Shown: positions 3,653-52,329 of the stretch, piece by piece | Layout of the letters: every line of letters begins with the position of its first letter | Numbering within the stretch: the first letter of the stretch is position 1 | Assembly: GCA_019752125.1 (NCBI GenBank) | Contig: JAIEMM010000002.1 | Location: forward strand, 3,062 to 67,061 | DNA length: 64,000 nt | Direction of reading: 5' to 3' | Source of the DNA: Patescibacteria group bacterium | GTDB lineage: Bacteria; Patescibacteriota; Minisyncoccia; Phycocordibacterales; SBAW01 | Program-made: the position numbers and the translations under genes | The notes under the pieces: generated by a model | The model's input: the letters and a program-made list of their open reading frames with translations, nothing else | Told to the model about the DNA's origin: nothing | The model's database searches: none

Positions 3653-4455
3653 ACAGTAGTCTTCACGAATGTACGAAGTATATCAATTATGTTCTGTGGA
3701 GCATTCAAGACCATTATATGGTTTCCCCCTTCTATTGTCTCAAGGCGCGCGCCTGGGATCTTCTCTTTCATCGCAACAGAATTTTCAATGCCGAATATGG
3801 TGTCTTTCGTTCCATGAATAAGAAGCGTCGGAAGTTGCAACTGCGAAAGAGTGTCCGTTGCATCAAGCTCATAAGATTGCCGTATGCAATAAAGATACGT
3901 ACGGAAACCGGTATTACAAATGTCTGTATACGAACGAGAAACATTCCAGTCGCCACTGTCGGGAAAACGCTCGTAGTCTACACGTCCGTGCTGTCTAAGT
4001 GAGAGCGGTAGATATGAGAGAACGGGAATGGGAGTAAGTAGCCAGCGCAGTATTTTTGTTGGTACGTGCCTCCCAACGCTATAGTCTCCACTTATAAGCA
4101 CCGCTCCTTTGAGTGTGTGTTGCCACTGTGCGAGATATGCCAATACAACCAGTGCGCCAAATGAATGTCCGACGAGCACATACGGATACTCTCCTATATG
4201 AGTAAGTAATAGATGAAGATCTTCTACAAAGTGCTTGAGATGATGGTCACTATAGTTTGGATAACGTTTGGAATTACCATGTCCACGCTGGTCATACGTC
4301 ACGATATTGATCTCATCTTTGAGCGCCTCTTCATACGCTTTCCACGCCGACGAGCTCCCTGAAACACCGTGCACAAAGACGAGTGTGGGGCGTCCAGGAA
4401 CAAGGTCATTGGTGCGATATACGATGCCGCGCTCTATAAAATAGTGATCCTTCAT
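3649..4455 (-). CDS. alpha/beta hydrolase fold protein
   Basis: HGxxG oxyanion segment LVFVHGVSGSS and nucleophile elbow GHSFGA. Overlaps the upstream GT4 gene by 4 nt, suggesting an operon. Confidence 0.65.
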   Translation of the reverse strand: MKDHYFIERGIVYRTNDLVPGRPTLVFVHGVSGSSSAWKAYEEALKDEINIVTYDQRGHGNSKRYPNYSDHHLKHFVEDLHLLLTHIGEYPYVLVGHSFGALVVLAYLAQWQHTLKGAVLISGDYSVGRHVPTKILRWLLTPIPVLSYLPLSLRQHGRVDYERFPDSGDWNVSRSYTDICNTGFRTYLYCIRQSYELDATDTLSQLQLPTLLIHGTKDTIFGIENSVAMKEKIPGARLETIEGGNHIMVLNAPQNIIDILRTFVKTTV

Positions 4456-8936: not shown

Positions 8937-9060
8937 ACTACCCTTGCTCAGATGTGACAAAAGACCCTCTGATTCCTTGCCCGATTTTTAGTCGGACAAA
9001 GTTTCAGAGGGTCAAAGGGTCTCAAGTGCAAAGCCGAAGCTAAGTACCTGAGTGAAAGAA

Positions 9061-9663
9061 TCAGAGAGAGACGACTTGGTTGCCGCCGTCCCACCTGTCC
9101 GGGTGCCCGACAGAGCTGGCCTCGACGTTCCAGCCGCCGTCTTCGACGCTCCAGCAGGCGCTCACGGCCCACAGGATACCGCCGACATCGCGGATGTAGG
9201 CGATGTTGGCGCGGCCGTTGACGAGAAACGCGCCCTGCTCGCCCTTCCCCTGCTTCGACAGCAAGGAGAAGAACTGGCCCAGGGTGATCTCGTGGTTGTC
9301 CCCGAGCTCGGTGATGGTCGGCGCGTCGAGCGACGATTCCAGGAGCTTGTGGACTTTCAACTCGACGGCTTCCGAAACGCCCTCCTCCTTGCGAAGGAAG
9401 TTCTTCTTGAAGTTGTCGCCGAACCAGGCGATCCGAACCGCGGCCTTCTTGGTGTCGACCTTGAAGTGGTTGGCGGCCTTGAAGCTTTCGATCGCAGCGG
9501 CCGAGACGGTCGTCATGAGCTCAAGGAGCTTCTTGGGTTCCGTGGGCTCGATGGGAACGAGCTTGAGCTGGCCGGCGAGGTATTTCTCCACACCAACCAT
9601 ACCGCCCATCTTGTTGACCATCGCCTCGATCTGGCCGAGGTTGAGTTCACCGTATTTCATCAC
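9061..9663 (-). CDS. GC-rich ORFan protein, likely horizontally acquired
   Basis: 200-aa ORF in a patch of about 62% GC against about 48% background. SD ggaagga lies upstream of the ATG. The overlapping plus-strand ORF 9052-9714 has antisense-like composition. Confidence 0.5.
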   Translation of the reverse strand: MMKYGELNLGQIEAMVNKMGGMVGVEKYLAGQLKLVPIEPTEPKKLLELMTTVSAAAIESFKAANHFKVDTKKAAVRIAWFGDNFKKNFLRKEEGVSEAVELKVHKLLESSLDAPTITELGDNHEITLGQFFSLLSKQGKGEQGAFLVNGRANIAYIRDVGGILWAVSACWSVEDGGWNVEASSVGHPDRWDGGNQVVSL

Positions 9664-9728
9664 AGGCTCCTTCCCGGCTGCTTGCCGGTGGACTTCTCGC
9701 TTCCCGCGAGTTGAGGGGCATATGACGG

Positions 9729-18074: not shown

Positions 18075-18341
18075 TCAATCCAACCAGTGGTGCTTCTTCC
18101 ACAACAGCCAGCAGATGCCGAGGCCGGCGACGATGAAGAGTTGACCCACCATCAGTGCCTTGATGGAGTGTCGCGCACTCCATTCGACCCCTGGTTCGGT
18201 GAAGTAGCGCGTGATGAAGCCGGAATTTTCCAGCGCTGATTGGACGGCAACACCGCCAAGGACAATCAGTATCGCAGCGATGGCCGCAAAGGTGAGAAGA
18301 CCCATCACCTTCCAATCTTTCTTCGACAATCCTAAAACCAT
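18075..18341 (-). CDS. small two-TM membrane protein
   Basis: 88 aa from ATG 18341, preceded by SD gaggga; two hydrophobic helices. GC slightly above background. Confidence 0.35.
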   Translation of the reverse strand: MVLGLSKKDWKVMGLLTFAAIAAILIVLGGVAVQSALENSGFITRYFTEPGVEWSARHSIKALMVGQLFIVAGLGICWLLWKKHHWLD

Positions 18342-18418
18342 TTGAATCTCCCTCAAAGGACGTTTATCTCGCCTCGCATTATACCTCTAAATCGCCACTC
18401 TTGTCAAGAGTGGCCGGA

Positions 18419-19404: not shown

Positions 19405-19848
19405 TCAGAGAAACGGATGAGGCAGATCGAGCTCCGCGTACAGCAACTCCATGAACTCGCCGACCATCTTCGCCTCGTGCCACGGAAGCGCGCAAGGAGA
19501 GAATTTTTTGCCATGGCGCGCAAACCCATCCACCCACCCTTGGGTAAGACGGAGATCCATTCCCGTCTTCTCCTCGCAGATGATGAGCACTACCTCGGTC
19601 AACTCTCCATGCTGCCAGTCCGAAGCGTAGTAGATCTGCACGACCTCGTTGTTCAGAGAAGCACGGAAGGAGCCGGTCGAGGTTAAGGATTTGATTACCT
19701 CGAAATTCTTCCCCTCACCGAAGAGCCTGGGGAGCTCTTTGAAGTCGAGTGTCGGTTGCTCCAAGTAAGCCCCTAACGGCTTTTCGAGCCAAGAGAAAAG
19801 CGACGAGAACCACGCCCGGGTACCAATCTGTAGAGACTGTAGCGACAT
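19405..19848 (-). CDS. hypothetical protein (GC-rich ORFan)
   Basis: 148 aa starting MSLQSLQ, with SD gaagggagg 5 nt upstream. Elevated GC. Confidence 0.35.
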   Translation of the reverse strand: MSLQSLQIGTRAWFSSLFSWLEKPLGAYLEQPTLDFKELPRLFGEGKNFEVIKSLTSTGSFRASLNNEVVQIYYASDWQHGELTEVVLIICEEKTGMDLRLTQGWVDGFARHGKKFSPCALPWHEAKMVGEFMELLYAELDLPHPFL

Positions 19849-19956
19849 GGTCGCCTCCCTTCTACGCTGGTTAACGCATTGAACACCTACCAAAATCCTA
19901 CAACGAGAAGTTTTGTATGTCTAGGCTTCATAATTTAAAAGAAAAAAACTCCCCTG

Positions 19957-20496
19957 TCAGACAAGGGAGGTTTCGAAGGTGAGAACATAGGGCTTCAACC
20001 CCTTCGGTAGAGGCGACACTTCACGAAGACGCTCCATGAAAAACTCGAGCGCAAGCACTTCGTGTTCATTAACCCGATCAAGGGGAAGAACTGCCGGAGG
20101 GTCGGGGCGTTGCAGTTTTACCAAAACGCCGTCCTCGAACGTAATAAACAACCCCCTGTGCCACCTGCACTCAATCTGTACAGTTTCAACCAGACCGCGG
20201 CCGTTTTGCCAGGCAGCAGTATGTTCAATCCGTACGCGGTCATTGTACACATGGCTCTGGTTCCGGATGCCGCGTGGCCCAACAATGGTGCGCTCCACTT
20301 CAAATTTACTCAGATCAACTGAGGCAAGATCTTCAAGGTGGAGATTGGAAAAACCCCAGATGCGTCTCCAAACTACCTCGAGGCGATCACGTGCCCGGAG
20401 ACACTTGAGCCATAGCCACGCGACGATAATAGCGAGAACCATATGGTGGATGTACCAACGCTGGAAGCGATTATGTAGTGATTGTACAAGCGACAT
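19957..20496 (-). CDS. hypothetical membrane-anchored protein (GC-rich ORFan)
   Basis: 179 aa starting MSLVQSL, with SD aagggggc upstream and one N-terminal TM segment. Elevated GC. Confidence 0.35.
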   Translation of the reverse strand: MSLVQSLHNRFQRWYIHHMVLAIIVAWLWLKCLRARDRLEVVWRRIWGFSNLHLEDLASVDLSKFEVERTIVGPRGIRNQSHVYNDRVRIEHTAAWQNGRGLVETVQIECRWHRGLFITFEDGVLVKLQRPDPPAVLPLDRVNEHEVLALEFFMERLREVSPLPKGLKPYVLTFETSLV

Positions 20497-20576
20497 AGTC
20501 GCCCCCTTTCCGGCCATTTCTGGCCTAATTGATTCAAAGAACCTGCAAAAAGATTACAGGGTAAAACTAGTCCGGT

Positions 20577-21860: not shown

Positions 21861-23633
21861 CTATTTGCGCAATTCCTGCTGGCGTTTTTTAAGCGTTGCC
21901 AGCTTCTGCATTAACATACCCTGAGCCTCAGGAAGCGCTGCGTAAAGTTCATCTCGAACTCGGGCCATTTCCTCATCTATAAGACCCCGCTCAAGAACCT
22001 CGAGCAATTCTGCCACAATAGCATTTTTGTCCTCTCCCAACGATTCAAACTCAAAACGAAACTTTTCTGCACCGTCGGCGAATGCGTGCTCGATGTGCTC
22101 TTTGCGAGAAGCTCCTAGTAATGTTTCTACACGTTGCTTAGTACTTTCGTCTGTATCATAAAATAGCAGCAACGCAGCGGTGCGCTCCAAAGAAGAAGGT
22201 TGGTTCCCTGTTTCTACTGCCGCAGGAGTATCGCCTTCGACTTCGTTTATAGACAATACCGGTCGCTTTATAACTTCTGCATGAATTGCCGCCTCAGGCA
22301 CGCGCAAACGTCCTGCAACCGTGCGAGTAAAATGCGCTTGTTCTATCTTGCTTTGAATGGCTGCGATAAGTGGAACAACCTGCGCTTCTACAAGTTTTGC
22401 GTAGGCACGTTCATCTCGTGCCTGAGGACGGAGTACGTCCAAGAAAAATTCTATCGAGGCTTTTGACGTGCGGATTGCCTGCTTTAGTGACTCTGAATCT
22501 TCTTTAGCAATATCTGCAGGATCTTTTCCATCTTTAAAATTTGGAATCTTTACATCAAAACCCATCTTGAGCGCCATCTGTGCACTCTTAAGGCCAGCAC
22601 GAATACCAGCCGCATCACCATCGAGCGCGAGTACAAGGCGTTTTGAATATCGCGAGAGAAGAGAGAGATGTTCTTCAGTAATTGCTGTACCAGAACTTGC
22701 GACAGCGAATGGAAGGCCGGACTGGTGGCTCATAATGACATCGAACTGTCCTTCTACGAGCAACACACAATCTGCCTTGCGGATAAAATTCTTTGCCTTA
22801 TCCAATCCATACAGCACGCGCGATTTTTTAAAGATCGGAGTTTCAGGACTGTTTACATATTTTGCCGGTTCAGCCCGCGGTTCCGGAGCCCGCAAAGTCC
22901 CTTCGGGACCGCGGGCCTGGGCTTTGCGGGCTTCGCCTTCCATCTCTTCAAAGAATCTGCCTGAAAACGCGATAACCTTCCCTCCCGCGTCAAACAGCGG
23001 GAACATAATGCGCCCACGAAATCGGTCATATATGCTATCGGGCGAGGTCCGACCTCCCCCATTAGTGGCGAGGTCGGACCTCGCTGGATTAACCGCAAGG
23101 CCTGCTTCAATAATTAAATCTTTGCTATATCCTTTTTTTATTAAATATTCAGAAAGGTCGCGCCAATGCGCTGGCGCATATCCTATTCTCCAACTCTCAA
23201 TAGTTTCGTCTGTGACTCCGCGCTTTTCTTTTAGATATTCCAAAACGTCTGACCTCTTTTTGAGTTCATCTTGAAAGAACGCAGTTGCATCTTCAGACAC
23301 ATCGCGCAGTTGTTCTTCTTTTTCCTTATCTTCTTGTCGTGGAACGTAGGTGTTCTTCAGCACCACACCTGCCTTTGTCGCGAGTTGCTGAAGCGCAGTT
23401 TTAAAATCTATATGTTCTATTTTTTCAACAAAGGTAAAGATGTCGCCCTTCTCGCCACATCCAAAACAAATGTAACTCCCACGCTCTGGTGAAATCATGA
23501 ATGACGGCGTTTTTTCTTTATGAAACGGACAGCGCGCACGCATATTCCTCCCCGCCCGTTCGAGTTTTACATACTCTCCCACCACATCCTGGATAGAAAG
23601 CTTGTCTTTTATCTCCTGTACCTGCGAGTCCAT
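21861..23633 (-). CDS. dnaG: DNA primase
   Basis: CHC2 zinc finger (CPFHKEKTPSFMISPERGSYICFGCGEKGD) and TOPRIM (LVEGQFDVI). Contains two in-frame palindromic insertions. dnaG-rpoD operon arrangement. Confidence 0.9.
   Translation of the reverse strand: MDSQVQEIKDKLSIQDVVGEYVKLERAGRNMRARCPFHKEKTPSFMISPERGSYICFGCGEKGDIFTFVEKIEHIDFKTALQQLATKAGVVLKNTYVPRQEDKEKEEQLRDVSEDATAFFQDELKKRSDVLEYLKEKRGVTDETIESWRIGYAPAHWRDLSEYLIKKGYSKDLIIEAGLAVNPARSDLATNGGGRTSPDSIYDRFRGRIMFPLFDAGGKVIAFSGRFFEEMEGEARKAQARGPEGTLRAPEPRAEPAKYVNSPETPIFKKSRVLYGLDKAKNFIRKADCVLLVEGQFDVIMSHQSGLPFAVASSGTAITEEHLSLLSRYSKRLVLALDGDAAGIRAGLKSAQMALKMGFDVKIPNFKDGKDPADIAKEDSESLKQAIRTSKASIEFFLDVLRPQARDERAYAKLVEAQVVPLIAAIQSKIEQAHFTRTVAGRLRVPEAAIHAEVIKRPVLSINEVEGDTPAAVETGNQPSSLERTAALLLFYDTDESTKQRVETLLGASRKEHIEHAFADGAEKFRFEFESLGEDKNAIVAELLEVLERGLIDEEMARVRDELYAALPEAQGMLMQKLATLKKRQQELRK
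22868..22935. repeat. GC-rich nested inverted-repeat element inserted in-frame in dnaG
   Basis: Arms gcccgcgg/ccgcgggc and gcccgcaaag/ctttgcgggc. Encodes a low-complexity insertion of about 25 aa (MEGEARKAQARGPEGTLRAPEPRAEPA) just before the conserved KYxNSPET primase motif. Confidence 0.6.
23042..23084. repeat. GGTCCGACC-family palindromic element (in-frame in dnaG)
   Basis: 15-nt arms gcgaggtccgacctc / gaggtcggacctcgc with a 13-nt spacer. Encodes ARSDLATNGGGRTSP within dnaG. Confidence 0.65.
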
Positions 23634-23675
23634 CGTGTGCCTATTCTAGCCGTTTTTTCGTCTTTGCGGAGGTAC

Positions 23676-23705
23676 TTGACAAAATATATTAGTATATTGT
23701 AGAAT
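23676..23705 (+). promoter_or_regulatory. consensus sigma70 promoter for the 52-aa GC-rich ORF
   Basis: TTGACA (23676-23681), 18-nt spacer, TAGAAT (23700-23705). An AGGAGG SD sits 5 nt before ATG 23733. Confidence 0.55.
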
Positions 23706-23732
23706 TCAGGCCGGACCTACAAGGAGGATCCG

Positions 23733-23891
23733 ATGTCGAAGCGAGAAGAACTCTTGGTGCAGGCCAGTGAGGCCGAGTCCAGCGCCAGGTCGCGTGCCAA
23801 GTATGATGATCACTCCGGCGCCGAGCAACTTCGGGCCACCGCCGCGCGGCTTCGCAAGGAAGCCGACGAATTGCCCAAGGAAGAATGGTGA
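23733..23891 (+). CDS. 52-aa GC-rich small protein (not in the ORF track)
   Basis: MSKREELLVQASEAESSARSRAKYDDHSGAEQLRATAARLRKEADELPKEEW. Perfect SD and consensus promoter; about 62% GC. The terminator hairpin at 23908-23951 is ggccgcgc...gcgcggcc plus a T-run. Confidence 0.45.
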   Translation: MSKREELLVQASEAESSARSRAKYDDHSGAEQLRATAARLRKEADELPKEEW

Positions 23892-23986
23892 TCTCCCAGG
23901 TACGAACAAGGCCGCGCAACCCAACTGGGAAGCGCGGCCTCAATCTTTTTATATTCTATATTTTACTTGTAGTGAACGCAGTCGAA

Positions 23987-30880
<6,894 letters not shown>

Positions 30881-31187: not shown

Positions 31188-31412
31188 CTACTTGCCCACG
31201 CCGACCGCGGAAGGAGCCCCGAGAGGCTGCCAACCTTTTTCGGTCATCACCTGCAACGGGCCGGCTTCGACCACGGGCTTACCCTGACAGTGCGGATTCC
31301 GCGCACAGAGCTTGACCCCGAAGGCACCCCTCACCTTGAGAGAGCCGCAGCCACAGGATTCGCCCGACCGAGCCGGAGCCGGAGCCGCGATCAGATTGGT
31401 TCGCTTTGCCAT
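31188..31412 (-). CDS. 74-aa GC-rich Cys-containing small protein
   Basis: About 65% GC; motifs CGCGS...C...HCQG. Followed on the minus strand by a hairpin (ctaccc..gggtag) and a T-run near 31150-31185. Confidence 0.35.
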   Translation of the reverse strand: MAKRTNLIAAPAPARSGESCGCGSLKVRGAFGVKLCARNPHCQGKPVVEAGPLQVMTEKGWQPLGAPSAVGVGK

Positions 31413-31449
31413 TGTCTTGAACTCACTATTTTCTGGGTTGGAGAGTCGA

Positions 31450-31581
31450 TTACTTCTGGTTCATGCCCTTGGCAGACTTGTCCTGGGGCTGACTGCCCCA
31501 GAACTTGTCCTCCTTCACTCCCGACGAACACCCACCGTTGGGGACCTTTTGCATGCCCTTAGCAAATTTCGGCTTCGCCAT
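31450..31581 (-). CDS. 43-aa Lys-rich small protein (not in the ORF track)
   Basis: MAKPKFAKGMQKVPNGGCSSGVKEDKFWGSQPQDKSAKGMNQK. SD aaggga upstream; putative promoter TTGACT-17-TATGGT at about 31620-31650 (minus strand). Confidence 0.3.
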   Translation of the reverse strand: MAKPKFAKGMQKVPNGGCSSGVKEDKFWGSQPQDKSAKGMNQK

Positions 31582-31705
31582 TTTGAACGTTCCCTTGTTG
31601 GAAGAACAATCTATAGAAAATATGTAAGGTTTGGACCCTCACATAACGATGACCATACTCCTCATCAAATCTTCAGTCAACGGAAGTTATAAACCTTTCC
31701 CTCGA

Positions 31706-39523: not shown

Positions 39524-39805
39524 CTACCCCTTCCACCCAAGCTGGGTCAGATTCCTGATCAAAGTGCCAGTAGGGGCGCACCGAACTTCAGGGCCGAAGA
39601 ACTCGAATGTACCGCCAGGGCGCTCGTCCGTATAGAGGACCTTGAACCGTCCGTCTTTCTGAACGAGCTCGATGGCAATCCAGCTGCCGCGCACATCCCA
39701 CTTCACATAGTAGCGATTGCCTTGGAACGGGCCCGTCCGGAAGCAACGCCCCGGCTCGATTTCATCGAAACTTTTAGTTTCCGGCTTCTTTACAGCCACT
39801 GCCAT
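39524..39805 (-). CDS. 93-aa GC-rich ORFan protein
   Basis: About 60% GC. SD aaaaggag 8 nt upstream of the ATG. Minus-strand terminator hairpin ggccgcagt...actgcggcc plus T-run at about 39478-39520. Confidence 0.4.
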   Translation of the reverse strand: MAVAVKKPETKSFDEIEPGRCFRTGPFQGNRYYVKWDVRGSWIAIELVQKDGRFKVLYTDERPGGTFEFFGPEVRCAPTGTLIRNLTQLGWKG

Positions 39806-45379: not shown

Positions 45380-46594
45380 ATGGAAGAACGCGACCACCGA
45401 ATCATTGGCAAGGAACTAGACCTGTTTACATTTTCTGACCTTGTCGGATCAGGTCTCCCACTTTGGACACCCAAAGGTACAACATTTAGAACTGAGCTGG
45501 ATACATTTATCTGGGAAATGCGCGAAGCGCGTGGATATGAACGCGTAACTATTCCCCACATTACAAAGCGCGACTTGTACGAAAAGTCGGGACATTGGGA
45601 CAAATTTGCTGAAGATCTTTTTAAGATCACATCACGCGAAGGTCGCGAATATGCGATGAAGCCGATGAACTGCCCGCACCATACGCAGATTTTTGACCGC
45701 CACCCTCACAGCTACCGTCAGATGCCGCAGCGCTATGCGGAAACTACAATGGTGTACCGCGATGAACAGTCGGGAGAACTCGGCGGCCTTACCCGCGTGC
45801 TTTCGATCACTCAAGATGACGCACACGTTTTCTGCCGTACAACTCAAGTACGCGAAGAATTCCTAAAGATCTGGGACATGGTGGATGAATTCTACAAAAA
45901 ATTCGGATTCACCTTGCGTGTCCGCCTTTCTTTCCGCGACCCAGCCGCACCTGAAAAATACATCGGCACTCCTGCTGTATGGGATGCTGCAGAAGCAGAG
46001 CTTCGCAGCCTCGCAGAAGAACGCGGCGCAGATACATTTGAAGGACCCGGCGAAGCTGCTCTGTACGGACCAAAGCTCGACTTTATGGCAAAGAACGCAG
46101 CGGGCCGCGAATGGCAAGTTGCAACTATCCAGCTCGACATGAACATTCCTGAACGCTTTGACCTCACCTGCATAAACGAAAAAGGAGAAAAAGAACGCAT
46201 CGTGATGATACACGCCGCTATCGCAGGTTCTCTTGAACGCTGCGCAGCAGTGCTTCTTGAACACTTTGATGGAAAACTTCCACTCTGGCTCTCGCCTGTA
46301 CAAGTTGCCATCCTTCCTGTTGGCGAAGGTCACCACGCATACGCAAAAGAAGTGTTTGCTCAGCTAAAAAGTGCTGGTATCCGCGCAGAACTTTCTATGG
46401 ACGAATCTCTCGGCAAGCGTATCCGTGGAACAAAAGAGCAGCGCGTTCCCTGCTTTATCGTTGTCGGTGACAAAGAAGTTGCTGAAGGCACGATAACGGT
46501 TGAGAACAACCGCAATGGTGACAAAGCTACTGTCTCAATTGCAGATTTTGTCGCGCCAACTCTCGAGCGCATCAAAGAACGCGCAAATATTTAA
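45380..46594 (+). CDS. thrS: threonyl-tRNA synthetase, catalytic plus anticodon-binding domains only (no N-terminal TGS/editing domains)
   Basis: Begins directly at the catalytic-core motif RDHRIIGKELDLF, with class II motifs (KPMNCPHH, FRDP). 404 aa against about 640 aa for canonical ThrRS. Confidence 0.8.
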   Translation: MEERDHRIIGKELDLFTFSDLVGSGLPLWTPKGTTFRTELDTFIWEMREARGYERVTIPHITKRDLYEKSGHWDKFAEDLFKITSREGREYAMKPMNCPHHTQIFDRHPHSYRQMPQRYAETTMVYRDEQSGELGGLTRVLSITQDDAHVFCRTTQVREEFLKIWDMVDEFYKKFGFTLRVRLSFRDPAAPEKYIGTPAVWDAAEAELRSLAEERGADTFEGPGEAALYGPKLDFMAKNAAGREWQVATIQLDMNIPERFDLTCINEKGEKERIVMIHAAIAGSLERCAAVLLEHFDGKLPLWLSPVQVAILPVGEGHHAYAKEVFAQLKSAGIRAELSMDESLGKRIRGTKEQRVPCFIVVGDKEVAEGTITVENNRNGDKATVSIADFVAPTLERIKERANI

Positions 46595-47510
46595 CGATAG
46601 AATTTTGAACCCGCTTCACTATCAATAGATAGGCTCCGAGCGCTGCCCATAAAAACAAGAACGCCCAGTACGCTATCGTCCCACCCATTCCAAGCTCAAG
46701 ACCTGTGTATGGTATTTGAGAAAGCGTAACAACAGGAGTAGGTAGTGGCACATACATCGGCGCTTCATATCTATAGTTATAGTGTGGACGATAATTGTTG
46801 TACGCAATATTATTTTGCAATAAGTTACAGGTTGGATACACACCGGCATATCCTTGCGGACATCCTGTCGCAAAACTGTACGAGCCGTTTTGATAGTTTG
46901 AATACGAGTTAGTGGTCGTATTTGTTGTGTTATACGAGCTGCTGTTCGTCGTGTTGTTGGTTGTGTTGCAACTGTTGTTTATACAGGAATTGTTAGTTGC
47001 TGTTGTTACCACAACACAGTTAGGAAACGTGCCGGTTGTGCCCGCAGGACAAAGGACTGGTGCAGGTGGAGGCACGGGAGGAGCGACCACAGGAGAAACT
47101 GAGCTTCCGCCTCCACCACCGCCTCCGCCCACACTGCCTCCCCCAACACCGCCGCTGCCGTCATCACCGCTTCCACCGCCACCAGCGTCGCCTCCGCCGC
47201 CACAGCATCCGCCGCCGCTGCCAGCGTCACCTCCACCGTCGCCCCCAGCACCGCCACCTGCGCCGCCATCACCTCCAGCGCCCCCGCCGCCATCGCCACC
47301 ACCATCGCCTCCTCCACCGCCATCTTGTGCGTGAACAATAGTCCCGTGGAAAAATGCGCTTCCAAGCCCATGGCCAGCAAAGTTAGTTACAAGCGCTGCA
47401 ATAAAAATAAAGCCGGTTGCCAATACAACTCCTCCGATAATCCGTAATAAATGCGACATATAGGTAATGATTTTATTAATAGTGTGCTGAATATTTGATG
47501 AGGTTTTCAT
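46572..47510 (-). CDS. Gly-rich secreted protein with C-terminal IPYTG sortase sorting signal
   Basis: Signal peptide ending VHAQD, then a long GGGD/GGGA low-complexity tract and an N/T/S/Y-rich region. C-terminus SQIPYTGLELG, hydrophobic helix, KRVQN. Confidence 0.6.
   Translation of the reverse strand: MKTSSNIQHTINKIITYMSHLLRIIGGVVLATGFIFIAALVTNFAGHGLGSAFFHGTIVHAQDGGGGGDGGGDGGGGAGGDGGAGGGAGGDGGGDAGSGGGCCGGGGDAGGGGSGDDGSGGVGGGSVGGGGGGGGSSVSPVVAPPVPPPAPVLCPAGTTGTFPNCVVVTTATNNSCINNSCNTTNNTTNSSSYNTTNTTTNSYSNYQNGSYSFATGCPQGYAGVYPTCNLLQNNIAYNNYRPHYNYRYEAPMYVPLPTPVVTLSQIPYTGLELGMGGTIAYWAFLFLWAALGAYLLIVKRVQNSIVKYLRVL
47040..47330. repeat. low-complexity GC-skewed (ggcgg)n coding repeat
   Basis: Encodes the poly-Gly/Asp/Ala tract of the IPYTG protein. 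Confidence 0.6.
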
Positions 47511-47534: not shown

Positions 47535-48050
47535 TTACCCCCGATACTGCTTTGCTTTGAGCTGTGTACATCCCTGGTCGCACAGAACCAGGTCGAGAAT
47601 ACATTCTCGTGCGCCAAGTTTGATACACCAGTTGTTGCAGACTTCAGGACGGAAGATTGCATAGAAGCGCGCTTCCCCGCCTGTGTGGCGCTGTGCGGTG
47701 TACATCGTCATCCTTCGAGATGCATTGCCCCAGGCCGCAAGGTCGGATGGGTCCACGATAACGTTTGGTACCTGTTGAGTGGCGCCGAACATCATACGTG
47801 TCACCTGCCAGTTCTCGAAAACAAGAGACTGGGTCCCTTGATTTTGCTGGACCTTGCGGCGCAGCTCATCGGTGACATCCGGGTCTCGTGCAAAGAGATC
47901 CCCGAAGGCACGTAGTGCATCATCGAGCGTTCCTCTGTACGGATCGCCGCCAGGCTTACGCCAGTGGAAGAACCTATCGTCGGCCAGCACAGGGTTGAGC
48001 CCAAGCGTTGCAGCCGCCACACCCGCAAGGAGAAAATTACGTCGCCTCAT
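47535..48050 (-). CDS. secreted protein with twin-arginine (Tat) signal
   Basis: N-terminal MRRRNFLLAGVAAATLGL. About 57% GC. Last gene of a three-gene minus-strand unit. Confidence 0.45.
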   Translation of the reverse strand: MRRRNFLLAGVAAATLGLNPVLADDRFFHWRKPGGDPYRGTLDDALRAFGDLFARDPDVTDELRRKVQQNQGTQSLVFENWQVTRMMFGATQQVPNVIVDPSDLAAWGNASRRMTMYTAQRHTGGEARFYAIFRPEVCNNWCIKLGARECILDLVLCDQGCTQLKAKQYRG

Positions 48051-48890: not shown

Positions 48891-49367
48891 TTATTGGCGT
48901 TGCACTTTAGGCAACGAAGCTGGTCTATTCGGCAGATTGCCTGGCGAAGGGACCATGTCGATGACGTGGCTGCTGTTGGCGTAGGCGGCCATACGGTCGC
49001 GTGACATGACCCGCCCGGCATCATCGGTACACCATTCAAAGATGTGCCCTTTATTGAGCCAGTGTCCGCTGATGCAGAAGCGATCGTACGCCTCCTTCGT
49101 CTCGCTGTGTTGCAGATTAGCGGCATTGACCTGAACACCGTTCGCGTCGTAGATATTGAGTGTCACGACACCTGCCCTAGTCTGGTGGATGTTGTACCAC
49201 CGTGGATCAGGACAGTTGGTCGGCGTTCCCGGTTGCTGAAGATGCTTCAGACACGCCGGGTTTGTGGGGTTTGCCCCGCAATCTGCCTGCTGCGCACTGC
49301 TCACAGAAAAACTCAAGGCAAGCAGAAAGGCGGCAAGCGTTAGCACGAGAAACTTCTTACACATCAC
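48891..49367 (-). CDS. secreted Cys-containing protein
   Basis: Sec signal peptide (LALSFSVSSAQQ), six Cys. Elevated GC. Confidence 0.4.
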   Translation of the reverse strand: MMCKKFLVLTLAAFLLALSFSVSSAQQADCGANPTNPACLKHLQQPGTPTNCPDPRWYNIHQTRAGVVTLNIYDANGVQVNAANLQHSETKEAYDRFCISGHWLNKGHIFEWCTDDAGRVMSRDRMAAYANSSHVIDMVPSPGNLPNRPASLPKVQRQ

Positions 49368-51363: not shown

Positions 51364-52140
51364 TTACCGGTCGACCTTAATCTCGGCCACGGTGGGTGCC
51401 TTGCCGAGCAAGTAGCCCGAGCTGTCGGCGATCGCGACGTTCTTGCCATCGCGATCGCGGACGATGTAGAGCTTTTGGCCGCTCTGGCAGTCCTTGAGCT
51501 CGGAGCCGATGGTGGCGAAGTTGAATTCCTTCAACCCGTTCATCTTCTGCTTGCTCTTCACGCCGACGCGGTGCTTGCCCTCGACCCCTGCCTTCTGGCA
51601 GTCGACGAGGGCGCCCTTGACCAGGAGTTCCGGACTCACATCGACTCCGGAGAACCTGGCGATGGCCGCCTCGACCTCGCCGATCGGAGCGTTCAGGACA
51701 TTGCTCTCGCTTCCCTCCTTGAAGGCGCCGGCCAGGGCCTCGATGCTCACGCCAGGCGTGAAAACACGAAACGGCTGGGCCGGAACCTGCACAGCAGGCG
51801 CCTGAGCGGCGACCTGCGGAGCCGGCACTGTCGGCCGCTGAGCAGCCTTGTCCAGTTCGTACTGCCGACGGAGCTCGTCCAGGTCGCCCTGGTTGAGCAC
51901 GACGGCCCCCGGCGCTGTTCCTGCAACCGGTACGAGGTTGGACACAGACGGAGCCGAGACCGTGGAGGTGGGCGCATCGTTGCGCTTGCACCATCCGGTA
52001 CCTGGAGTCGCCGGCTTTCCATCCGGCGTGCACCGATAGTGCTGCGGCGACGGAGCCGATCCGTAGAACTGAGCCTGTGCCGAAGTGGCGGCGAACAGGA
52101 ACGCAGTGGCCAAGACGGCCGAAACGATACGATTCAACAT
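51364..52140 (-). CDS. GC-rich secreted protein
   Basis: About 62% GC. Signal peptide (AATSAQAQF) and Pro/Ala-rich linker. A 12-bp stem hairpin (aaggagcaggtg...cacctgctcctt) lies downstream at about 51318-51351. Confidence 0.4.
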   Translation of the reverse strand: MLNRIVSAVLATAFLFAATSAQAQFYGSAPSPQHYRCTPDGKPATPGTGWCKRNDAPTSTVSAPSVSNLVPVAGTAPGAVVLNQGDLDELRRQYELDKAAQRPTVPAPQVAAQAPAVQVPAQPFRVFTPGVSIEALAGAFKEGSESNVLNAPIGEVEAAIARFSGVDVSPELLVKGALVDCQKAGVEGKHRVGVKSKQKMNGLKEFNFATIGSELKDCQSGQKLYIVRDRDGKNVAIADSSGYLLGKAPTVAEIKVDR

Positions 52141-52329
52141 GATAATAGGCCCTCCTTAGGCCAGATGAAGCTCGAGATTGAGCTGTTTCAAAGATTTCGC
52201 TTCACCCAAAGCTTCATAGAATATCCAGAGAGCTTTGGTACGATGTAGCTATTATAAATCTCATTACAACCTTTGTCAAGTCCAGCCAGTAACACAACAA
52301 AAAGCCTTACTTGACAAGTATTTTTAACT

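Follow-up and report, generated by a model that had tools for sequence, protein, structure and literature searches.

What is a GC-rich open reading frame (ORF) of only 52 codons doing between dnaG and the RNA polymerase genes of a Patescibacteria group bacterium, and is it a gene at all? The question is raised by a 64,000-nucleotide (nt) stretch of DNA (contig JAIEMM010000002.1, positions 3,062 to 67,061; from here on, the window), in which an initial annotation had described the ORF as part of a complete expression cassette: a TTGACA-18-TAGAAT promoter, an AGGAGG Shine-Dalgarno (SD) sequence, ATG, 52 codons of about 62% GC, TGA, and a hairpin followed by a T-run. Direct reading of the sequence located every one of these elements where that annotation had placed them (Table 1), with a GC content of 0.616 for the ORF, and the AT-richer surroundings that it had pointed out are equally evident, the payload having a GC content of 0.61 versus 0.36 in the left and 0.28 in the right flank, in a genome that averages 49%. 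As set out below, the best explanation of our data combines a coding gene with a variable-slot context, and we hold this combined explanation with good confidence.

Taken by itself, an open frame in DNA of 62% GC carries little weight. Three other frames, of 84, 72 and 95 amino acids (aa), are open over the same GC-rich stretch, and a generic promoter scan found no enrichment of the motif count over shuffled sequences. The cassette promoter, which with 11 of 12 consensus matches is the best promoter-like site between 22000 and 26000, is significant because it is conserved in relatives, and not because of the motif count. What decides the case is therefore the comparison with other genomes. As to existing records, the ORF is not the unannotated one it had been taken for: an identical sequence is held in GenBank as MBY0472699.1, 'hypothetical protein K2Q00_00215' of a Patescibacteria group bacterium, in a record that carries no function, family or context information.

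Homologues and coding signature

The label of an ORFan, under which the ORF had initially been filed, had to be dropped as well. An exhaustive phmmer (HMMER) scan of 1.84 billion proteins, each the representative of a cluster, with the 52-aa protein (P0001) as the query returned only two other matches, P0002 (53 aa, 57% identity, E 8e-8) and P0003 (51 aa, 59% identity, E 2.5e-6); a word-indexed protein search with the peptide retrieved the query itself only, and an alignment-based repeat added nothing beyond these three members. The alignment of the three proteins spans their whole length, is broken by one gap of a single residue beside the initiator Met, ends in C termini that differ by two residues in length, and contains 22 invariant columns, including E15, S17, A18, R19, R21, K23, Y24, D26, G29, A30, Q32, L33, R34, A37, R39, L40, R41, A44 and L47. 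The full-length alignment yields the motif E-x-S-A-R-x-R-x-K-Y-x-D-x-x-G-A-x-Q-L-R...A-x-R-L-R..A..L. Judged by its sequence, the protein is a member of a tiny, undescribed family with three known members of 51-53 aa. Tblastn with the peptide found no match in phage and plasmid collections, and no family member turned up in IMG/VR when it was scanned with the family alignment by pattern and by tblastn. Among the called proteins searched, the relatives were found only in Patescibacteria-type contexts, and not in the high-GC Actinobacteria to which the initial annotation had pointed. A literature search yielded nothing relevant.

The nucleotide sequences of the three homologues bear the marks of a coding gene. 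Differences at codon positions 1/2/3 number 20/13/30, 17/18/39 and 19/19/35 in the three pairs, and 16-22 identical residues per pair use different codons. By the Nei-Gojobori method, the proportion of nonsynonymous differences (pN) is 0.30-0.38, compared with 0.74-0.91 for synonymous ones (pS, which is saturated). Only frame +0, that of the 52-codon ORF, stays open throughout the three homologues. The window has two long ORFs on the antisense strand (23689-23943 and 23706-23924), which are interrupted by stops in the homologues, with 12-38% identity in those frames, and the wobble-sharing antisense frame, which mimics conservation, has a stop in the window. The GC content at first, second and third codon positions (GC1/2/3) of 0.66/0.47/0.70 is of coding type. 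From this pattern it is very probable that the gene encodes a selected protein under purifying selection.

The homologues also come with start and stop signals of their own, each having a TTGAC(A/T) promoter whose -10 element follows after a spacer of 16-18 nt, an SD sequence (GGAGG or GAAGGAG) 5-7 nt from the ATG, and a hairpin terminator. P0002 is syntenic: in loci L008-L010 (in our numbering of the related loci) it occupies the interval between dnaG and rpoC, immediately upstream of dnaG and in divergent orientation, and in L011 it stands beside a short cut gene. In L012, an ORF of 50 aa (42-194), which features CxxC...CxxC and whose tail is strongly acidic (MKQICTSCGKK...EEEEDEEDAIPEMGDEEL), precedes the third family member.

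A variable slot behind a conserved promoter

In the window, the genes rpoBC, dnaG and rpoD follow each other in this order on one strand, with rpoD downstream of dnaG, and the small gene sits between the first two on the other strand. Relatives were located through DnaG, their contigs were examined, and twelve related loci were compared. With decreasing identity of their DnaG to that of the window, the slot between dnaG and rpoBC was found to hold a 59-aa membrane peptide (L002, 84%), a 67-aa membrane protein (L016, 83%), a 47-aa membrane peptide together with a second cassette of 78 aa (L013, 81%), no gene and a single hairpin in a gap of 59-75 nt (L001/L003, Ca. Adlerbacteria, 78%), no gene (L014, 78%), a 78-aa membrane protein (L015, 71%), a 42-aa gene (JGI 3300050046, 70%, with no DNA available), again no gene (L017 and L019, 70%; L018, 68%), a 231-aa protein (L020, 61%) and, in L008-L010 (52%), the homologue P0002 and, after it, a PaaX_M gene. 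Overall, the slot is occupied by the gene of the window, by one of four unrelated membrane peptides, by a soluble protein of 78 aa, by proteins of 42 or 231 aa, or by nothing, which amounts to at least eight different states among the twelve loci. In a rough neighbour-joining tree of DnaG, the window adjoins L016, and the six genomes that form the closest clade display five different states. Comparison of the payload DNA of the close relatives revealed no similarity (z of -1.6 to 2.4 in local alignments), compared with z = 14 between the window and the distant L008.

The promoter has been preserved to a far greater extent. The 50-nt promoter block, which runs from the dnaG start to TTGACAAA, is identical to that of L016 at 47 and to that of L013 at 48 of its 50 positions (94-96%), while the adjacent dnaG third-codon positions are only 60% (L016) and 77% (L013) identical. 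L002, L015 and L020 also contain GTACTTGACA, and L008 contains ACACTTGACA; in total, the promoter is kept in seven lineages. The -10 element of the relatives reads TATAAT or TACAAT, or TGTAAT in L008, and lies 17-18 nt downstream of the -35 hexamer in the small-ORF cassettes despite a diverged spacer sequence; L020 has only a weak TTAAAA.

At the other end of the cassette, the outer arms of the terminator T1, AGGCCGCGC (23909-23917) and GCGCGGCCT (23932-23940), pair around an inner CCCA/TGGG stem, with CAATCTTTTTAT downstream of the hairpin; our terminator scan had overlooked T1 solely because its loop exceeds 8 nt. T1 is homologous to the terminators of L016 and of the first L013 cassette, with a conserved outer stem and an inner stem that co-varies (CCCA/TGGG, CCCT/AGGG and TCC/GGA in the comparison of the window, L016 and L013), and it probably also meets rpoBC read-through that arrives on the opposite strand. 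The terminator of L002 is common to the second L013 cassette and distinct from T1. Within the window, the promoter block and T1 are each unique, without the repeats expected of a mobile element with conserved ends, and a search for local repeats or target-site duplications around the cassette gave chance-level 10-11-mers only.

The comparison shows the small gene as accessory cargo in a hypervariable dnaG-rpoBC slot, at which an ancient divergent promoter has been kept while the ORF was replaced, and in the closest relatives the terminator has been kept at the slot as well. This bears out what had been suspected of a self-contained, inserted-looking cassette: the gene is monocistronic and coding, close relatives have an empty junction of 59-75 nt or a different gene in its place, and its GC3 is foreign. 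Of the initial annotation as a whole, the self-contained, inserted small gene has stood, and the labels of an ORFan, of an unannotated ORF and, as discussed below, of an antitoxin have not. One can go further and imagine the junction as a dedicated 'hot-swap' expression slot, in which the promoter (GTACTTGACA...) and, in the closest relatives, the terminator would serve as a fixed platform and as recombination arms, between which a pan-lineage pool rich in GC3 would supply one unrelated small ORF in exchange for another; we consider this unlikely.

Several observations on the loci themselves were made along the way. On the minus strand, a TAGAAT is found at 23641-23646, 9 nt upstream of the dnaG ATG, and no SD sequence is visible before dnaG. 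This dnaG-strand TAGAAT/TAAAAT is kept in most relatives, including most of those with an empty slot (junctions L001, L014 and L019), and has diverged in L017, L018 and L020; it may be a -10 element that yields a nearly leaderless dnaG mRNA. In L008, a direct repeat of about 22 nt, ATGCTATAGGATAA(A/G)TTA(G/A)GTA, at 3778-3800 and 4347-4369 brackets the PaaX_M gene, which suggests that this gene may itself be an inserted unit. L002 (CAYGIN010000023.1) is labelled 'uncultured Candidatus Saccharibacteria', and its DnaG shares 86% identity with the DnaG of a Ca. Adlerbacteria metagenome-assembled genome and 84% with that of the window, so that the taxonomic label looks doubtful.

Origin of the gene

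The composition of the gene sets it apart from its host. Its GC3 is 37/53 = 0.70, compared with 0.473 +/- 0.045 for 30 host genes (binomial P = 8e-4), and its synonymous-codon score is -0.25, compared with -0.02 to +0.24 for host genes. The L008 lineage, in which the syntenic homologue resides, is GC-rich (locus 0.585, dnaG 0.616), and the third homologue, P0003, lies in DNA of 48% GC and has a GC3 of 0.44. Because of the foreign composition, the GC content of the homologue lineage and the patchy distribution, import is favoured over vertical descent with many independent replacements, and the copy in the window was probably acquired by recombination from the wider Patescibacteria gene pool and not vertically inherited.

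Predicted structure and comparison with known systems

AlphaFold2, run on the three-sequence alignment, predicts two antiparallel helices (residues 3-23 and 27-46) with a mean predicted local distance difference test score of 92.8 and a tight turn between them at Y24-D26. In the alignment, helix 2 displays a 3-4 heptad pattern of A30, L33, A37, L40, A44 and L47, and the core residues of helix 1 are L7, A11, A/C14 and A18, a pattern consistent with an Ala/Leu zipper core as in small helical hairpins. Conservation peaks around the tip of the hairpin, S-A-R-x-R-x-K-Y-x-D-x-x-G-A-x-Q-L-R, and extends along one flank of helix 2 (R39, R41); the termini are variable and keep their acidic character. 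The initial annotation had described the peptide as helical, charged and devoid of a hydrophobic segment, in agreement with the predicted soluble hairpin: 10 Lys and Arg residues stand beside 12 Asp and Glu residues, and the maximum Kyte-Doolittle value over 19 residues is -0.65, which is not that of a type I toxin or a membrane protein. Its tryptic peptides include EELLVQASEAESSAR and YDDHSGAEQLR.

From these features a plausible course of expression and action can be sketched. A sigma-70-type promoter would start an mRNA of about 240 nt near 23712, the canonical SD sequence would drive translation of a soluble protein of 52 residues, and the T1 hairpin would terminate the transcript. The protein is predicted to form a hairpin of two antiparallel helices around a core of Ala/Leu heptads; its best-conserved residues would ring the tip (S17-A18-R19, R21, K23-Y24, D26, G29-A30, Q32-L33-R34, R39 and R41), and in the cytoplasm it would bind a macromolecular partner, either nucleic acid or an acidic protein surface, via this tip, perhaps as a dimer that forms a four-helix bundle. 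That the protein is indeed such a soluble cytoplasmic adaptor, which contacts nucleic acid or an acidic protein surface through its Arg/Lys/Tyr tip and possibly dimerizes like Rop, is a tentative proposal that we think may well turn out otherwise. The regulatory role suggested at first stays a guess.

Among known proteins, the ColE1 repressor of primer Rop/Rom (PF01815), which has 63 aa, is the obvious point of reference, as it is a small antiparallel helix-loop-helix protein whose a/d core alternates small (Ala) and large (Leu) residues, and the fold predicted here is of that general type. Rop dimerizes into a four-helix bundle and binds RNA kissing complexes; of these properties, the prediction made here covers the hairpin of the monomer. 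Unlike Rop, however, the hairpin protein has no Pfam sequence match, and none of the three members matched Rop in Pfam scans at E <= 10; the Foldseek matches that involve a repacked Rop variant do not rise above noise (E 6.2-7.4, probability 0.10-0.13), and the gene is chromosomal in Patescibacteria, with no plasmid homologue found by tblastn. A secondary-channel factor of the Gre/DksA type was considered for a hairpin encoded beside RNA polymerase genes and rejected on size and tip sequence: Gre and DksA combine a long coiled coil, acidic at its DxxDxA-type tip, with a second domain, globular or of the zinc-finger kind, by which they dock on RNA polymerase, whereas the protein of the window has 52 aa, helices of 20 residues, no second domain, the tip K-Y-(D/G)-D-x-x-G-A and no Pfam match.

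For the slot, two comparisons suggest themselves. Enterobacteria have intergenic loci, variable from strain to strain, that encode small proteins and type I toxins, such as Ibs/Sib, Ldr/Rdl, Zor/Orz and similar. Both there and here, short stand-alone genes with their own promoter and terminator lie between core genes, their occupancy varies among close relatives, and several occupants of the Patescibacteria slot are small hydrophobic peptides. The occupant in the window, in contrast, is hydrophilic and has no detectable antisense partner, and the Patescibacteria slot swaps unrelated ORFs between a shared promoter block and a shared terminator, an arrangement that to our knowledge is not a described feature of the enterobacterial loci. 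Integron cassettes resemble the slot in their fixed upstream expression platform, in the exchangeable promoter-proximal ORFs and in the hairpin-forming 3' element of each unit. They differ in that no integrase or attI was seen beside the slot, where no search aimed at them was made, in that T1 behaves as an ordinary intrinsic terminator with a GC stem, a T-run and a variable loop, and in that each slot payload brings its own -10 region and SD sequence. An attC-like reading of T1 was rejected, as the lone RYYYAAC-like string in the loop of the window is absent from L016 and L013.

Alternative explanations

It is conceivable that the conserved entity is not the protein but a structured or antisense small RNA with an incidental ORF, or a dual-function RNA: a strongly expressed plus-strand transcript that runs convergent to rpoBC and antisense to rpoBC-to-dnaG read-through could tune the expression of dnaG and rpoD. 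Indeed, the promoter and the terminator, and not the ORF, are conserved across the close relatives, T1 on the minus strand is trailed only by UUGUUCGU, so that rpoBC read-through across the cassette is plausible, and the folding z-score is mildly negative (-2.3). This score, however, compares with -2.0 on the opposite strand, and the minimum-free-energy structure includes the strong terminator stem. Against Rfam 15, the whole window yielded only a tRNA-Thr at the gathering threshold, and the region itself, at E <= 10, only terminator look-alikes. RNAalifold on the three homologues produced a weak consensus (-23 kcal/mol) with a penalising covariation term of +1.56 and many broken pairs, whereas the substitutions are distributed by codon position, and the proteins align with practically no gaps; empty-slot relatives, finally, manage without such an RNA. 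Codon-level conservation is present, RNA covariation is not, and the antisense ORFs are not conserved, these being the points that the initial annotation had set in advance as decisive for its reading. Given the lack of an Rfam match and of covariation support, the codon-pattern substitutions and the empty-slot relatives, a purely RNA role is very unlikely, and the RNA explanation in its broader form is improbable too; an additional interference effect of the convergent promoter is possible.

Another explanation would make the protein one half of a toxin-antitoxin or addiction-like module, possibly acting in trans against small membrane peptides like those in the slots of relatives. The hydrophobic slot peptides of four relatives, with maximum Kyte-Doolittle values of 2.5-2.9, resemble type I toxins and small membrane proteins in size and shape, and a patchy, strain-specific distribution is typical of conflict genes. 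Within the window, however, the gene is monocistronic between its promoter and terminator and has no adjacent partner ORF, and the sole neighbour of its homologue in L008 is the PaaX_M protein, which has its own start signals. No antitoxin, toxin or defence family was matched in Pfam, NCBIfam, PADLOC or PHROGs, the best match in PADLOC-DB 2.0 (E 0.057, for one member only) falling short of a defence assignment. Neither a paralogue of the gene nor a copy of the membrane peptides of the relatives occurs in the window, nor is any of the relatives' payloads duplicated elsewhere in the window or in the loci, and the promoter scan detected no antisense promoter. A type II antitoxin in particular was rejected, there being no co-operonic toxin gene and no antitoxin domain (RHH, HTH, Phd/YefM and similar) in the scans. 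The antitoxin-like character once attributed to the protein thus found no backing in a partner gene, an antitoxin domain or a defence-system match, and we deem a module of this kind highly improbable.

That the ORF is spurious, a piece of foreign GC-rich DNA left open by chance and endowed with chance promoter and SD motifs, as four of six open frames over the stretch, a codon usage unlike that of the host and the unenriched promoter scan might suggest, is scarcely credible and already contradicted by the data, namely by significant full-length homologues with the same start, stop and length, one of them syntenic, by the evident purifying selection and by a promoter conserved in seven lineages.

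The preferred explanation, an imported coding gene in a variable slot whose product may act as an adaptor, has points weighing against it too. The family has only three members, one of them on a contig of 568 nt, and the transcription start, the 3' end of the transcript and its translation are all deduced from the DNA. Pfam, NCBIfam, PADLOC and PHROGs contain no significant family for the hairpin protein, a profile search of the PDB gave coiled-coil noise only (E > 0.1), and Foldseek against PDB and BFVD retrieved generic helical hairpins only (E > 0.2). The tip is not strongly basic overall, D25, D26 and E31 offsetting R19, R21, K23 and R34. With respect to the origin, the small payloads of close relatives are GC3-rich as well (0.68-0.84), and high GC3 may, speculatively, be a trait of the slot or of an accessory pool common to these genomes, arising for instance through GC-biased gene conversion at a recombination hot spot, and not the signature of a particular donor; vertical inheritance with many independent replacements is likewise possible.

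Features of the locus and of the wider window

Table 1. Elements of the cassette, genes bounding the slot, and further genes without Pfam match in the window, most of them GC3-rich.
Feature	Coordinates	Strand	Remarks
Promoter block	23634-23683	+	from just upstream of the dnaG start codon to 2 nt beyond the -35 hexamer; includes GCGGAGGTACTTGACAAA
-35 hexamer TTGACA	23676-23681	+	invariant in all occupied-slot relatives
-10 hexamer TAGAAT	23700-23705	+	18-nt spacer from the -35 hexamer
Putative 5' untranslated region	23712-23732	+	transcription start deduced from sequence
SD sequence AGGAGG	23722-23727	+	5 nt before the ATG at 23733
Coding sequence, 52 codons and TGA (23889-23891)	23733-23891	+	protein MSKREELLVQASEAESSARSRAKYDDHSGAEQLRATAARLRKEADELPKEEW, MBY0472699.1; GC 0.616
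Putative intrinsic terminator T1	23909-23950	+	9-bp GC stem, inner 4-bp stem, T-run 23944-23950
dnaG	21861-23633	-	left slot boundary, divergent from the small gene; Pfam Zn_ribbon_DnaG, DNAG_N, Toprim
Fused rpoB-rpoC	23987-30880	-	one ORF of 2297 aa; right slot boundary, convergent with the small gene
Pfam-less gene	51364-52140	-	
Pfam-less gene	18075-18356	-	
Pfam-less gene	39524-39805	-	
Pfam-less gene	47535-48050	-	
Pfam-less gene	48891-49367	-	
Pfam-less gene	19405-19893	-	
Pfam-less gene	19957-20517	-	

The single-ORF fusion of rpoB and rpoC has a counterpart in the JGI 3300050046 relative, where a 2286-aa single product contains both the Rpb2 and the Rpb1 domain sets; a literature search on such fusions in the Candidate Phyla Radiation (CPR) found nothing specific.

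The window contains many further genes without Pfam match, most of which have their own SD sequence and terminator and most of which have a GC3 of 0.59-0.80, compared with 0.47 for the host (Table 1); the accessory genes of this genome are systematically GC-richer than its core. Promoters were noted for a 258-aa secreted-looking protein (TTGACA-17-TATAAT at 52251-52279) and for a 93-aa protein with two transmembrane segments (TTGACA-18-TATAAT at 18378-18407). The two Pfam-less genes that follow rpoD (186 and 162 aa; 19405-20517, minus strand) are mutual paralogues of a fast-evolving family, being 25-43% identical to the single copy of relatives (L013 5556-6116; L001 7228-7584), compared with about 85% for the next gene, a PDDEXK_1 nuclease. 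A membrane-anchored protein of 312 aa (46572-47510, minus strand) has a tract of some 90 residues in which Gly, Asp, Ala and Ser abound, with a region rich in Asn, Thr and Ser behind it, and the tract accounts for the highest short-range GC peak of the window (47002-47400). Three GC-rich 'ORFs' on the plus strand (9052-9714, 1722-2276 and 31312-31692) resemble antisense shadows, in that their translations are rich in Asp, Glu, Leu, Val and Arg and they lack an SD sequence; the true genes at these positions are probably on the other strand, and the three are not to be counted as GC-rich ORFans.

Implications

The annotation of small proteins is badly deficient, and the majority of CPR proteins lack a known function. 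Viewed as a single gene, the one described here encodes an ordinary, uncharacterised accessory small protein, and it is the slot, with its conserved promoter and variable cargo, that deserves to be followed up. The gene is nonetheless instructive, as a compositionally odd ORF of 52 codons has very probably proved to be a selected gene whose product has a confidently predicted fold, and the alignment of its three members provides a seed for finding more. An essential-gene junction with so many states behind a near-constant promoter offers a marker for the strain-specific gain and loss of small genes in ultra-small, recombination-dependent symbionts, and it suggests a natural insertion site with a ready promoter and terminator, should these organisms become genetically tractable. 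If the 'hot-swap' idea, unlikely as we consider it, were true, the slot would be an integrase-independent analogue of an integron that supplies strain-specific small proteins, and the 52-aa protein would be one old, conserved allele of the pool from which they are drawn.

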